Shown here one piece after another: positions 26,365-56,035 of a DNA stretch of 64,000 bases. Position 1 is the first letter of the stretch. Each line of letters starts with the position of its first letter. The notes under the pieces were generated by a model. That model made no database searches. It worked only from the letters and a program-made list of their open reading frames with translations, and had not been told where the DNA came from. Origin of the DNA: Eledone cirrhosa (taxonomy: Eukaryota). The translations under genes and the position numbers were made by a program. The stretch is taken from positions 43,400,001 through 43,464,000 of the forward strand of contig OZ024747.1 in the NCBI GenBank assembly GCA_964016885.1. Reading direction: 5' to 3'.

Positions 26365-26744
26365 ATATATATACACACACATATACACACATAAACATAC
26401 ATGCATACACACATATATATAATCATATACATACACATATAGTTATTTTGATGCACTCGTACATATATAAATATATACACATATACACACATAAACATAC
26501 ATACATACACGCATATACATGCAAACAGACATACAAACATATGCATACCTACAGACATACAAACATATGCACTTATATATATATATATTTTATATATATA
26601 TATATATATTTATATATGCAAAGTTTTATTTAAATTGTTGGGTTACGAGTAAATATGTATAACTGATATAAAAGCACTCAACAAGTATTTGGAGTATATT
26701 TACGATATTAAATAAATGGAAACTATATTTATAAAACCATATTT

Positions 26745-26810
26745 ATTTCATTATATATATTTCAGGGATATCATATTAAAAATATGGTATGCCTTCATCA
26801 GACAAAATAC
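26745..26810 (-). ncRNA. Minimal type I hammerhead ribozyme motif (family HH-A)
   Basis: Minus strand: attttgt-CTGATGA-aggcataccatatt/aatatgatatccct-GAAA-tatata-TA-atgaaat. Confidence 0.8.
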
Positions 26811-27108
26811 AATATAAACAGTCTTATAAATAGATAGATTTGACATACCTTACACTTCAACTTCCATTTAAAAAGTTGATTTGGTAGTGAAAAATGTTAG
26901 GGACAGTTATAGAGAAAAAAAGAAAGAAAGAAAGAAAGCGAAGAAAAAAGAAGAAATGCATGCAACGAAAAACAGAGAGAGATAGATATAGAGAGATAGA
27001 GAGAAGAAATTCATGTAAAGAAAAAACAGAGAGAGATAGATAGAGAGAAAAAAATGGAGATAGATAGAGAGAGAGAGAGAGAGAAAAAAAGAGAGAGAGA
27101 GAGAAAAA

Positions 27109-27454
27109 ATAGAGAGAGATAGATATAGATAGAGATAGAGAGAGAAAAATAGATAGTTGGGCACCAGTTGAATGACGTATCAATGATATATTTATTTATT
27201 TATTTATTTAGTTCTAGTATTAAGGTAGAGAGAGATATATGTGGTTATATGTATATATATATATATATATATATATATATATATATATATATATATATAT
27301 ATATATATATACATATAACCACATATATCTCTCTCTACCTTAATACTAGAACTAAATAAATAAATAAATAAATATATCATTGATACGTCATTCAACTGGT
27401 GCCCAACTATCTATTTTTCTCTCTCTATCTCTATCTATATCTATCTCTCTCTAT
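27109..27454. repeat. Perfect palindrome (~145-bp arms) centred on (TA)n
   Basis: Arms are exact reverse complements; identical ORFs 27168+ and 27395- confirm the symmetry. Confidence 0.95.
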
Positions 27455-27517
27455 ATATATATATATATATATATATATATATATATATATATATATATAT
27501 ATATTTATATATATTTA

Positions 27518-29918
27518 TCATCATCATCATCATCATCAACGTTTAACGTCCGTGTTCCACGCTTGCATGGGTTTGGACGGGGGTAGTCCCACTTGAGGCA
27601 AGAGTGATTGTCTTGCTCGCATAGGACTGTCTGGCAGGTTTTCTACAGTTGGATGCCCTTCCTAACACCAACCACATTTACAGTGTGGGTCTGGGAGGTT
27701 TTTACCGTGTTGCCTACACGGCCACATTACAGCGTGGACTGTGTGTTTTTTTGTCGTGACACCTACACGATCTCATTTGTTTCGGCCTCGATGGCGCGGC
27801 ACCAACATAACTTTACATAGAACGGGGTGGTGTGGATCGGGTGGGGGTGGTGGTGGTGGGACGGGGTGTATTTTGTTAGAGATGCCTACTGGCTGGAGTA
27901 GGTTTTACTATATATTTAGGTAAGGCGGGTCTTCTTTGTTACTGAGTACCGCCAAAGGTCTCGGTCCAGTGACATTGTCTTGGAGAGGTGTAAGTGTGTG
28001 ATGTCGGAGTTTATCAGCTCGTCCCAGGTTTTTCTAGGTCTGCCTATTCCGTGACTACCGTCTATCTTTATTGCCCTGCACTTTGTTATACAGCTATCGA
28101 CTTTCATGCGCATCACGTGTCCATACCAACGTAGCCTTCTCTCGAGTAAACAACATCTGATCCCTCTTATCTCTAATTTTTTTCCTTAGTTCGTTTATGC
28201 TTTGCCGTTCACGTATATTACTGTTACACATCCAGCGGAGCATGCAAGCTTCGTTCTTCTCTAGTCTGCGTATATCCTCTGCACACAATGCCCAGGTCTC
28301 ACTGCCATGCAGCATTGCTGTTCGTATGCAGGCATCGTACAACCTGCCTTTCATTTTTAGTGAGAACCCTTTAGCAGCTAATAGTGGTATAAGCTCTCTG
28401 AACTTTTTCCAACCAGTTCTGACTCTAGCTACAGTACTTTCAGAGCACCCTCCCCCACTGCTGATTTTATCGCCCAGGTAACGGAAGCTGTCCACTATTT
28501 CTATAGAACCCTCTGCGCAATTGAAAGAGCTAGTATTTTGTGGGCACTTGCTGCTACTTATTGCACCAGAACACCGGCCACATGTAAAATCTATGTTCTT
28601 AGTTAGCTTACCTGTGATCCCACTACATCTTTTATGCACCCATACTTTGCATTTAGGACATAAAATGGAGTTTCTACCTACGCCTTTCCTACACACCGAG
28701 CACGACCATTTCCCAGAAGGGACCGCCGCCTTGTTTTCTTTCCTACAAACTAGTACTTTGGTCTTAGCCAGGTTAATTTTAAGTCCTTTTGACTCTAGGC
28801 CGTGCTTCCATGTTTGGAATTTCTTCTCTAGCTCGGCCATTGATTCCGCTATGAGTGTCAGGTCGTCTGCGTATAGGAGTTCCCATGGGCAGCCTGTCTT
28901 GAACTCCTCTGTTATAGCCTGAAGGGCAATAATAAATAGTAGTGGGCTGAGAACAGAGCCCTGATGGACGCCAACTTTTACGCTAAACTCTTCACTATAT
29001 TCGTTGTTAATTCTAACCTTGCTGACTGTTTCTTTATACATGGCTTGTATAGCCCTCACAAGCCATTCGTCAATGCCTAGTTTTCTAAGAGCCCACCAGA
29101 TAATGGAGCGGGGGACTCTGTCGAAGGCTTTCTCCAAGTCGACAAAAGCTAAGTAGAGGGGTTTACCTTTAGCTAGGTACTTCTCCTGTAGTTGTCGTAC
29201 TATGGAAAGAGCGTCTGTGGTACTTTTGCCTGACACAAACCCGAACTGCATTTCATCTAGGTCAATTCTCTCTCTGATTAGTTGCGCTATTACTTTTTCC
29301 GTGACCTTCATGACCTGGTCGATTAATTTAATGCCTCTATAGTTACTCCTATCTAGGGCGTCTCCTTTACCCTTATAACAGTTAACGATGATGCTGCTAT
29401 GCCAGTCCTTCGGAACAACCCCATTCTGTACGACTTGGTTAACTATGCGGGTGACCATGGTGTGTCCCACCGTGCCAGATGCCTTCAGCATCTCAGCAAC
29501 TATTTCCGAAGGCCCAGCCGCCTTACCAGTCTTCATATCCTTGATTGCCTTACTTATTATACTCCCCTCGACTAACACTGCTGGTCCCTCTATTGGGTCG
29601 ATATGGGGGAGACTGCCTTTCTCCCAATTATTCTCCTCATTTAGTAGCCTTTCATAGTAACACTTCCAAGCTACCTTCTTATCAGCGTCGGTGATGGCAA
29701 GTGTGCCATCGTCGTTTAGTACACACTTCTCCCCGACAATATCACGGTTTTCCTTGACGCATTGCCTAGCAATCCTGAACACCTCACGTTTTTGGTCATC
29801 GCGTTGTAGAACATGCTTGAACTTTCTTTCCTCAGCTTCCCTTCTTGCTAAGTACACTTGTCTCCTAGCTTCCCTCCTGGCCACTTGATAGTCCTCTCTA
29901 CTTCCCCCATCCCGCCAT
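27518..29918 (-). pseudogene. 5'-truncated RTE LINE, subfamily 1 (frameshift near 28180)
   Basis: Near-identical to 23971-26364; an extra T in the T-run splits the ORF; both ends in (TA)n. Confidence 0.95.
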
Positions 29919-30481
29919 ATATATATATATATATATATATATATATACATACATACACACACATTCATGCACATATACGTACACATATGTGTATGTAGAC
30001 ACATACATATATACATACATATATACTGACACATGCACATGCACACACAGACACAATTTACATGTTTTTTTTTTTAATTCTTATTTTCATAAAATTAACT
30101 TTTTCTTTTACTGTTTCTTGATTTTCAGTTTTTTCCAAATCTTTTTAACATTTTAAAATAATTTTTTAAATTTTCATGGATAATTTTTCTCTATCTATCT
30201 CACTCTCTCACTCATTCACACACACTCTCTCTCTCTCCTTTTATCTATCTATGTTTTTTCCTTATTTTCTCCCTCTTCTCTTTCTTTAAGTCTTTCCACT
30301 TTATTTTCTCTCCCTGAATCACTTTCCTCACACGTGATTCTAAGATGATTTTGAACCAAATAAACTGTTTCATTGATAGTTTGTCCAAATAACTGCAGCC
30401 CCCGCCACAATATATGCAGGTGCATAAGTATATATAAACAGACACACAAGCACACAGGCACACAGACATTAATATATATAA

Positions 30482-54726: not shown

Positions 54727-54926
54727 TATATGATATATAAATGTTATATATATATATGTATGTATATATATATATCATATATATATGTTATATATATATA
54801 TATATCATATATATATGTTATATATATGTTATATATATATATCATATATATATGTTATATATATATATATATATATATATATATATATAATATATAAGAT
54901 CAAAAGATGGTTAAAAGAGTTCCATG

Positions 54927-54997
54927 TATTTTATTATGCGCATTTCAAAAACAAATATCATCATGCAATAACATTTGTGTTTTCATCAGATAAAATA
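54927..54997 (-). ncRNA. Type I hammerhead ribozyme (left arm)
   Basis: Mirror image of 55116-55186. Confidence 0.85.
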
Positions 54998-55115
54998 GGA
55001 AGACATGATATGAAGGTTAAAAAACACTTGTGGATAGTGCAGTTTTAAATCAACATATGTTGATTTAAAACTGCACTATTCACAAGTGTTTTTTAACCTT
55101 CATATCATGTCTTCC

Positions 55116-55186
55116 TATTTTATCTGATGAAAACACAAATGTTATTGCATGATGATATTTGTTTTTGAAATGCGCATAATAAAATA
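55116..55186 (+). ncRNA. Type I hammerhead ribozyme (right arm)
   Basis: tattttat-CTGATGA-aaacacaaat...atttgttttt-GAAA-tgcgca-TA-ataaaata. Confidence 0.85.
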
Positions 55187-55367
55187 CATGGAACTCTTTT
55201 AACCATCTTTTGATCTTATATATTATGTATACTCCAGTCCTACAAACTGTAGAGTGCTTCTTATCTGATATCTGCATTGCTTTATTGTACTACACTAAAA
55301 CTCACCTCCTACATATATATATATATATATATATATATATATATATATATATATATGTGTGTATATA

Positions 55368-56035
55368 TAACCAAAGATTAATGCGGTTCATTGATTACTC
55401 AATGAATATAGTTTTACAATAGATTAAAAGCACTCTACAAGAAAGTTTACTGGAGTTATTATTATTCAGAATAATAATAAATGAAGACATTCAAAAATGA
55501 AGACATTCACATTGACTGCCAATACTGAAATTGAACCATCAAGACCGTTGAGGTATGTCATACATCAATTCATGTATTTTATCTGATGAGGACGTACTGA
55601 AAAAACAGCACAGTACCTTCGAAATATCATCATCATCATCATCATCATTGTTTAACGTCCATCTTCCACGCTTGCATGGGTTTGGATGGGAGTTTTCCCA
55701 CTTGAGGCAAGATTGGTTGTCTTGCTCATATAGGACTGTCTGGCGGGTTTTCTCCGGCTGGACGCCCTTCCTGACACCAACCACATTTACAGTGTGGACT
55801 AGGAGGTTTTTACCGTGTTACCTACATGGCCACATTACAGCGTGGACTGTGTGTTTTTTTTTTGTGACAGCTACACGAGACGGGGGTGTATTTTTGTTAG
55901 AGGTGCCTACTGACTGTAGGTTTCGCTTTGTACTTAGGCAAGGCAGGTCTTCTGTATTACTGTGTAGCGCCAAATATATAATAAAACATATATTTTGATT
56001 ATGTGAATGTCTTCATTTATTATTATTATGAATAT
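55368..56035. mobile_element. HH-A element whose hammerhead is interrupted by an RTE 3' fragment
   Basis: Tail aaagcactctacaag..actggagt; inverted ends aataataaatgaagacattca / tgaatgtcttcatttattatt; core CTGATGA at 55583. Confidence 0.7.
55626..55972 (-). mobile_element. 3' end of RTE subfamily 1 (diverged)
   Basis: WRYTVIQKTCLA-stop, 3' UTR homologous to 25973-26364, (TGA)n tail. Confidence 0.85.

Follow-up and report, generated by a model that had tools for sequence, protein, structure and literature searches.

A 64,000-nucleotide stretch of the genome of Eledone cirrhosa (contig OZ024747.1, positions 43,400,001 to 43,464,000; hereafter the window) carries four loci with diverged type I hammerhead ribozyme motifs, collectively designated HH-A. 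We read the four loci as 5'-truncated, head-to-head pseudo-long terminal repeat (pLTR) ends of four autonomous Penelope-like elements (PLEs) of the Hydra clade, in which two hairpins downstream of the ribozyme likely position the reverse transcriptase (RT) at two fixed starts, and assign this reading a probability of roughly 0.65.

The order of parts in these elements is hammerhead, hairpin 1, a tail of approximately 85–95 nt, hairpin 2, ATG and an open reading frame (ORF) for the RT plus a GIY-YIG endonuclease (EN) at the C terminus. E1 denotes a copy end in (TA)n directly 5' of hairpin 1, and E2 the corresponding end directly 5' of hairpin 2. Each window locus belongs to its own multi-copy family (families 1 to 4 for loci 1 to 4) and is composed as follows.

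26602..27247, minus strand: family 1 copy with 3' untranslated region (UTR), hammerhead, hairpin 1 and tail, stopping at E2 in (TA)n; 91% to the 3' end of the ORF-bearing copy L162, ends mapped
26744..26809, minus strand: family 1 type I hammerhead (core 26801) with C.C at stem II pair 4, a palindromic stem III and predicted cleavage after 26752
26673..26695, minus strand: family 1 hairpin 1, from the motif match
27316..27454, plus strand: family 1 short inverted arm of 139 bp, 3' UTR only, mirrored over a (TA)n run; copy alignment
31391..31596, minus strand: family 2 arm with hammerhead (31443–31505, core 31497), stopping at E1 in (TA)n; copy alignment, mapped ends
31605..31724, plus strand: family 2 opposite arm, without hammerhead, with hairpin 1 (31630–31652) and tail, stopping at E2; copy alignment
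54882..55059, minus strand: family 3 arm with hammerhead (core 54989), stopping at E1; copy alignment, mapped ends
55054..55314, plus strand: family 3 opposite arm with hammerhead (55116–55186, core 55124), hairpin 1 (55231–55258) and tail, stopping at E2; copy alignment
55362..55493, minus strand: family 4 arm, without hammerhead, with hairpin 1 (55429–55456) and tail, stopping at E2; copy alignment
55515..55627, plus strand: family 4 opposite arm, 5' part, with hammerhead stem I, core (55583), stem II and GAAA; core pattern, copy alignment
55625..55974, minus strand: 3' fragment of an RTE long interspersed nuclear element (LINE), a later insertion of approximately 350 bp that breaks family 4 stem III; 81–90% to the RTE 3' end at 25932–26366
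55974..56034, plus strand: family 4 opposite arm, 3' part, with the remainder of stem III and the 3' strand of stem I, stopping at E1 in (TA)n; copy alignment

A preliminary description of this DNA had noted a strand inversion at three of the four loci; an inversion is present at all four, at locus 1 by way of the short arm at 27316–27454. Loci 2, 3 and 4 each combine one arm ending at E1 with one ending at E2, and both arms of locus 3 (54882..55059 and 55054..55314) start at the run-off point proposed below. The shared tail motif of that description lies at 26695(-), 31630(+), 55231(+) and 55456(-) and corresponds to hairpin 1. None of the HH-A copies in the window carries an ORF.

Hammerhead structure at the four loci

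The type I hammerhead core and the stems described earlier are present at all four loci, with cores at 26801(-), 31497(-), 54989(-)/55124(+) and 55583(+). A descriptor tolerating one mismatch in stem II recovers complete type I hammerheads at 26801(-), 31497(-), 54989(-) and 55124(+), and a strict descriptor recovers 0 of the 4 loci because of that mismatch. The pattern CTGATGA-N8-38-GAAA has 8 matches in the window, with 1.34 expected and 0 of 100 shuffles reaching 8; locus 2, the core of which reads CTGAGGA, is not among them. CUGANGA, GAAA and UH together with three helices, helix I being open, are found at the loci, the set being broken at locus 4 in the window and intact in the copies of its family. 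Loci 1 and 2 are 81% alike across 143 bp. An Rfam scan was dominated by microRNA models on TA repeats, with no hammerhead family among 150 listed of the 262 matches.

Stem II was said to differ at each locus and still pair, which holds almost throughout outside pair 4. Excluding pair 4, 35 of 36 cells pair with their own partner in the four loci, the best of 24 arm permutations (mean 25.75). Among nine stem II variants drawn from 276 HH-A matches (all loci collected at that stage, overlapping loci kept), 78 of 81 cells outside pair 4 form pairs, compared with 58.6 when arms are shuffled (p 5e-5), with compensatory swaps between A-U and G-C and between U-A and C-G; since the descriptor itself required 5 of the first 6 pairs and the permutation test ignores relatedness, we take this covariation as support rather than proof. 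Pairs 7 to 10, which the descriptor did not demand, form in 9, 8, 8 and 8 of the nine variants. Pair 4 is a pyrimidine mismatch (C.C or C.U) in all nine (0/9 pair), and may represent a tertiary contact or a protein site. The same mismatch is seen in a family with a different stem I (ACTGC; copies L011, L045 and L081). The first pair, G10.1-C11.1, is replaced by A-U in 218 of the 276 copies.

The covariation suggested earlier is confined to stem II, because stem I is conserved in sequence: it is nearly invariant and changes only between A-U and G-U. Stem III is palindromic at the loci, as described, although the TATA of locus 4 reflects the RTE interruption, intact family 4 copies having TATATA. 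Stem III has an 8-nt palindrome, and its variants shift to another palindrome or to a wobble-compatible form. A monomeric stem III costs 2–3 kcal/mol, and the palindrome pairs with itself at -3.2 or -10.5 kcal/mol, which fits a hammerhead acting as a dimer; self-cleavage is a prediction from sequence. Metazoan PLE hammerheads (Cervera and De la Peña 2014, PMC4209133) are similar in being of type I and present in both pLTRs, in their long helix II and short palindromic helix III with a predicted dimer, and in forming several covarying consensus families per genome; they differ from HH-A in that the latter has an 8-nt stem III palindrome, mostly A-U in place of G10.1-C11.1, and a retained internal C.Y mismatch.

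Coding parent elements of the Hydra clade

In the 3.0-Gb genome, the best 40 of 293, 276, 2103 and 932 candidate loci were taken for families 1 to 4, respectively, and extending the copies yielded pLTR-ORF-pLTR elements for all four. Family 1 includes four copies (L162–L165) with intact 750-aa frames, in which the hammerhead lies just 5' of the ATG and again in the 3' repeat, as well as 150 scored RT matches at 96–100% identity; family 3 has frames of 775–816 aa (L238–L240). Intact ORFs are thus found in two of the four families (1 and 3), and for these the pLTRs of the ORF-bearing elements match the window sequences at 95–98%. Families 2 and 4 are older, with broken or partial frames in an identical layout. 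The cognate hammerhead was found within 1.5 kb in 18 of 30, 9 of 12, 13 of 15 and 5 of 12 protein-fetched loci of families 1 to 4, and in 0 of 12 loci of a fifth Hydra family. Partial tandems of the form pLTR-ORF-pLTR, with an inverted 5' copy and an optional tail, are exemplified by L031, L032, L162–L165, L210, L218 and L238–L240. Family 3 is linked to its ORF through L126 and L238–L240; the RT beside a family 3 hammerhead in L124 was set aside, as it belongs to another family (L202–L205) lacking the HH-A motif. The latter is a young Hydra family with 808-aa frames, the hammerhead core CCGAAGA and an insert of approximately 55 nt in hairpin 1, and its copies stop just before hairpin 2. Hydra families also nest in one another's (TA)n flanks, giving clusters of pLTR ends (L008, L045, L060, L071, L103 and L119).

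The proteins are 52–71% identical to that of family 1 (nonsynonymous divergence, dN, 0.20–0.44; synonymous divergence, dS, 2.6–3.6 or saturated), so that the claim of a hammerhead structure kept despite divergence is borne out. The four families form one branch with support of 0.995 in a tree of unlabelled relatives, in which family 4 was represented by the related-subfamily copy L206, and the nearest named homologue is an Argonauta protein; no relatives were found in viral contigs. The predicted structure of the family 1 protein (predicted local distance difference test, pLDDT, 90.7) has TERT as its top Foldseek match (E 4.2e-10), and YRDD is present in 104 of 106 aligned proteins. Y622, Y635, G637, R646 and H650 are invariant in all 106, and we read them as the C-terminal GIY-YIG motif. 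No Pfam match to RT or GIY-YIG was obtained for any PLE protein tested, and the GIY-YIG domain had no profile or fold match; the PDB sequence search returned nothing for one protein, and the profile matched only a retron RT at E 0.013. Two segments of the family 1 protein (residues ~485–510 and ~585–600), located after the RT thumb and before the linker, are Asn-rich, predicted with low confidence and variable in length; the Asn-rich segments of the family ORFs resemble the N-rich inserts described in rotifer Penelope elements.

The Hydra clade, as defined by Craig et al. (2021; PMC8557442), is characterized by RWK, by DKT in place of DKG, by a CxCx5C linker in place of CX2-5CxxC, by CxxC and CxH motifs around the conserved EN residues E and N, and by insertion into (TA)n. 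The 106 proteins contain RW[KR] (96), DK[TS] (104) and CxCx5C (89), with neither DKG nor CX2-5CxxC in any, and that of family 1 has RWR, DKT, CxCx5C, and CDLC and CRH around the EN. By these defining motifs, the four families are EN-containing PLEs of the Hydra clade; a first reading of the RT as Nematis-like was dropped, as the Hydra definitions fit instead. In further agreement with the published description of the clade (PMC8557442), RT and C-terminal GIY-YIG share a single ORF, the pLTR contains a canonical hammerhead, insertion is into (TA)n, and copies show 5' truncation, a partial tandem arrangement, an inverted 5' copy and a tail on one side. Differences from the same account concern size (units of ~3.5–4 kb here, published as '<3 kb'), the tail (~85–95 nt here, 30–40 there) and the hammerhead, which here has a long stem II, a fixed C.Y mismatch, mostly A-U as the first pair and no extra post-core nucleotide. 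Hammerheads are listed there in Hydra elements, including one octopus family, Hydra-1_Obim, from which the four families differ, by eye, in protein and hammerhead. The suspected link of the hammerheads to Penelope is confirmed by their position in PLE pLTRs; the families are apparently new members of a known clade, the hammerheads and their home in Hydra pLTRs being already known.

Two fixed ends and the paired hairpins

Between the cleavage site and the ATG lie 186–214 nt, and in all four families this interval contains the same bulged hairpin motif twice (RCTC-stem-loop-stem-T(T/A/C)-GAGY-RCT; offsets 56/146, 59/152, 52/142 and 60/155 for hairpins 1/2 of families 1 to 4). The closing pair is A-U in hairpin 1 and G-C in hairpin 2 (over 124 hairpins, A-U 89, G-C 30, G-U 3 and A-C 2). 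The anchors of the motif occur in 127 of 174 distinct stretches downstream of hammerheads, and shuffling yields them 41 times in 3480. When 19 non-redundant hairpins are compared with arm shuffles, pairing is in excess at the closing pair and the first three upper pairs (p 6e-4, 6e-3, 6e-4 and 1e-4) and not at the fourth (p 0.94). Wobbles in the upper stem, counted on the sense strand, are G-U in 44 cases and A-C in 11, which favours a structure in the sense RNA.

The motif extends beyond Eledone. Among ten metagenome loci with relatives at 31–37% protein identity, five carry the hairpin in the pLTR position, and L244 and L250 have a hairpin pair between hammerhead and ATG. By eye, it is present in 4 of 6 published Hydra consensus sequences of PMC8557442 (coral Amil-2, sea cucumber Ajap-1 and Ajap-2, and, as a variant, sea louse Crog-1; Ajap-1 has two copies before the ATG), partial in Obim-1 and not visible in Amil-1. 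Our literature search, thin on subscription papers including older Penelope work, returned no duplicated hairpin marking both ends and no quantified rule of one end of each kind, and the passages and sections of PMC8557442 consulted do not mention paired hairpins.

Copy ends coincide with the hairpins. Of 284 aligned copies, 18 reading through into the ORF were set aside, and 243 of the remaining 266 ends lie between -8 and +2 nt relative to a hairpin start (11-nt windows), with 0 ends between hairpin 2 and the ORF. TA-rich sequence follows 229 of the 243 E1/E2 ends, and further TATA/TAWA sites in that stretch are seldom used. The ends are combined in a regular manner: of 88 distinct head-to-head insertions, 86 pair E1 with E2 and 2 are E2+E2. 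In contigs from four other DNA runs (at most two samples of one study, possibly the assembly's own source), loose (TA)n ends occur at E1 and depth falls from ~170,000 to 9,000 at E2, an approximately 19-fold drop; short copies therefore far outnumber ORF-bearing ones. By contrast, a second hammerhead family, HH-B, which is also flanked by (TA)n, ends at one and the same site in all 43 copies (30 loci) and has no such hairpin before it. Inspected by eye, other hammerhead families of the genome have two kinds of end, a short one immediately in front of such a hairpin and a longer one beyond it.

The opposite boundary of the short copies clusters as well. The junction is clean in 58 inverted pairs; their longer arm terminates 105–145 nt upstream of the cleavage site in 53 and goes beyond in only 2. 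The queries exclude shorter long arms and not longer ones, and that of family 4 favours long E1 arms. The peaks of these arm ends coincide, to ~2 nt, with the A of a TCA motif, at -138, -128/-126, -121/-120 and -118/-116 for families 1 to 4, and the 5' repeats of ORF-bearing copies frequently run past this point. An initiator (Inr)-like TCACT has been published in a PLE pLTR (PMC3846280), and transcription has been reported to start within the pLTR (PMC2377424; also PMC8557442). From the run-off positions alone, the TCA stop is inferred to be run-off at the transcript start. In families 1, 2 and 4, a conserved, splice-donor-like AGGTATG (~26855, ~31595 and ~55553 in the window) lies 30–40 nt after this start and approximately 100 nt upstream of the cleavage site; an intron from GGTATG to the start codon is not proposed, as an acceptor AG seen in family 4 is not conserved in families 1 to 3.

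Arms of one insertion resemble each other more than arms of different insertions do, the respective divergences being 0.007/0.068, 0.020/0.030, 0.016/0.031 and 0.039/0.056 in families 1 to 4 (3 pairs for family 4). Of the 58 clean pairs, 31 have an E1 arm that extends beyond its E2 partner on the 5' side, 11 show the reverse and 16 are even; as the E2 arm extends further 3' than the E1 arm, neither arm in those 31 pairs can have been copied from the other. Many arm junctions are palindromic or contain microhomology.

Priming model, alternatives and neighbouring elements

Because their positions match both fixed copy ends, the hairpins likely tell the RT where to start. Transcription would begin at the TCA of the 5' pLTR, an Inr-like motif; the two hairpins would be bound by two protein molecules, a putative dimer, and the EN would nick both strands of the (TA)n target, each nick priming cDNA synthesis just 5' of one hairpin. 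The two cDNAs would then be extended toward the 5' end of the RNA and joined by microhomology, giving an inverted repeat with a tail on one side. Since each hairpin lies 3' of its end, the 3' pLTR never retains hairpin 2. Long ORF-bearing arms that end at E2 nonetheless exist (e.g., L162, L210 and L212); to make them, the template would have to carry the ORF upstream of both hairpins. Such a template could be a circle, produced by hammerhead cleavage in both pLTRs (with a dimer formed through the palindromic stem III) and ligation, as in the circle model proposed for PLE hammerheads (PMC4209133); a tandem read-through transcript or template jumps could also supply it. The circle is our preferred option, since it would assign a function to the ribozyme and allow more-than-unit copies to arise; the need for it would explain selection on the ribozyme.

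The closest experimental parallel is the Poseidon PLE of Anolis (PAc; Frangieh et al. 2024, PMC11167929), according to which only one PLE has been reconstituted in vitro. There, the tail corresponds to the stretch between two internal RT starts, and both target strands are cut and extended; two starts bracketing the tail, an AT-rich target, double-strand cutting and extension, and a hammerhead upstream of the starts are shared with the present elements as we interpret them. Unlike in PAc, where the starts lie inside the ORF at an AC-rich stem-loop, the ends described here lie in the 5' leader, each directly 5' of its own hairpin, a conserved and bulged one.

The proposed scheme also recalls L1.

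Twin priming of L1, reportedly put forward by Ostertag and Kazazian in 2001, is said to use primers from both target strands and to generate a 5' inversion, as proposed here. The second L1 primer reportedly anneals internally at no fixed position and leaves arms without overlap, whereas the starts here are fixed and the arms duplicate the leader.

Several observations weigh against our interpretation. The covariation tests ignore phylogeny, and the descriptors imposed part of the pairing, in stem II and in the CTC/GAG anchors of the hairpins. Loci were the best-scoring matches to window queries, which biases arm lengths, and the transcript start site is placed by run-off positions only. Twenty-three of the 266 ends lie outside the two hairpin windows; 5 of the 10 metagenome loci lack the region or show no hairpin in the pLTR position, and L245 has a single copy. 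Isolated hairpins fold no better than shuffles (z -1.3 to +0.9), so that the protein would be needed for their stability, and gene conversion could partly account for arm similarity. As for the ribozyme, only 3 of 116 arms start within 6 nt of the cleavage site, with no enrichment of 5' ends there, from which it follows that most templates were uncleaved and that the role of the ribozyme is an inferred one; in vitro, hammerhead mutants of Poseidon had no effect on insertion (PMC11167929).

How the second end arises could be explained differently, by a single RT start followed by cDNA fold-back or antisense self-priming, with the EN resolving the other end at a motif-marked DNA site. The palindromic and microhomologous junctions and the near identity of the arms of one insertion would be expected from such a process, and both of its components have been put forward: self-priming was proposed to produce PLE inverted repeats (PMC3846280), and resolution by the EN to give rise to the tail (PMC8557442). 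We consider it unlikely, since in 31 of 58 pairs each arm has sequence that the other lacks, the excess of G-U over A-C wobbles on the sense strand is that of an RNA structure, and two internal RT starts have been measured in another PLE (PMC11167929). Somewhat less probable again is that the hairpins are signals for RNA 3' processing or termination and that the RT starts at RNA ends freed before each of them: the same two end positions and a motif structured on the sense strand would result, but processing alone does not explain one end of each kind in 86 of 88 insertions, the cuts would split the leader from the ORF, and initiation was internal in the Poseidon assay (PMC11167929).

The non-autonomous Penelope or retrozyme lineage envisaged in the preliminary description is, by comparison, very improbable. 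The ORF-less window copies and the great abundance of short copies speak for it; against it, the same sequences are the pLTRs of ORF-bearing elements, and the reading fails because every type of hammerhead has an ORF-bearing family of its own, in whose pLTRs it lies. That description had proposed a search for copies joined to an RT + GIY-YIG ORF, and their discovery contradicts its claim. Like non-LTR retrozymes (PMC7229834; preprint 10.64898/2026.07.22.740005), HH-A has a type I hammerhead, is related to PLEs and includes short non-coding copies. However, retrozymes are head-to-tail tandem units without an ORF, and HH-A consists of truncated ends of coding elements in head-to-head orientation: hardly any tandem arrays occur, with 4 same-strand hammerhead pairs less than 1 kb apart in 120 loci, and a coding parent exists. 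Least credible is an artefact of assembly or amplification, or a generic effect of (TA)n targets, which the palindromes and microsatellites of the window might suggest but which is at odds with the site-specific E1+E2 asymmetry, the recurrence of both ends in contigs of other runs and the single end of HH-B.

Beyond the positioning of the RT at two hairpins in these four families, we tentatively propose, at slightly below even odds, that the duplicated hairpin is a clade-wide, dedicated RT-positioning signal, one per start, and that programmed twin priming makes every insertion, short products running off the transcript start and full-length ones deriving from a hammerhead-made circle. If the proposal is true, a single RNA leader would account for the tail as well as for the inverted 5' copy and the partial tandem of PLEs, and the hairpins would be a template-boundary element in the retroelements most closely related to telomerase. 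The four families of this genome leave a sharp footprint, each insertion having both kinds of end, that is linked to a small covarying motif found across the clade, and two of them have many near-identical intact ORFs, turning the question of the RT start into a hairpin-mutation experiment.

Other hammerhead copies are scattered over the window. HH-B (stem III CTAG) occurs at 32910(+), 32574(-) and 58959(+), with further copies in L253–L282; several copies recur on the same strand at a spacing of ~440 nt, and the 1.5 kb around the copies showed no PLE ORF, making it a better retrozyme candidate than HH-A. At 33530–33870, there is a head-to-head pLTR pair with a degenerate hammerhead (stem III of the CCACTG type), a short and a tailed arm, and the bulged hairpin described above at ~33804. 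A third hammerhead family with a long stem III is found at 36614(+), 33917–34047 and 40311–40388, and its copies L069, L083 and L086 show a short end, a hairpin and a long end.

The remaining features are other transposable elements. An RTE-type LINE with an intact 1052-aa frame (EN, RT and PHD finger by Pfam) occupies 22814–25972(+) and a truncated RTE copy, 98% identical to it, 27437–29919(-), the two standing tail to tail around locus 1; more RTE copies lie at 40971–44001 and 52291–54725. Judging by their motifs, 62459–63070(-) is presumably a fragment of a LINE with a restriction-like endonuclease and 19065–19520(+) a fragment of a Tc1/mariner transposase.

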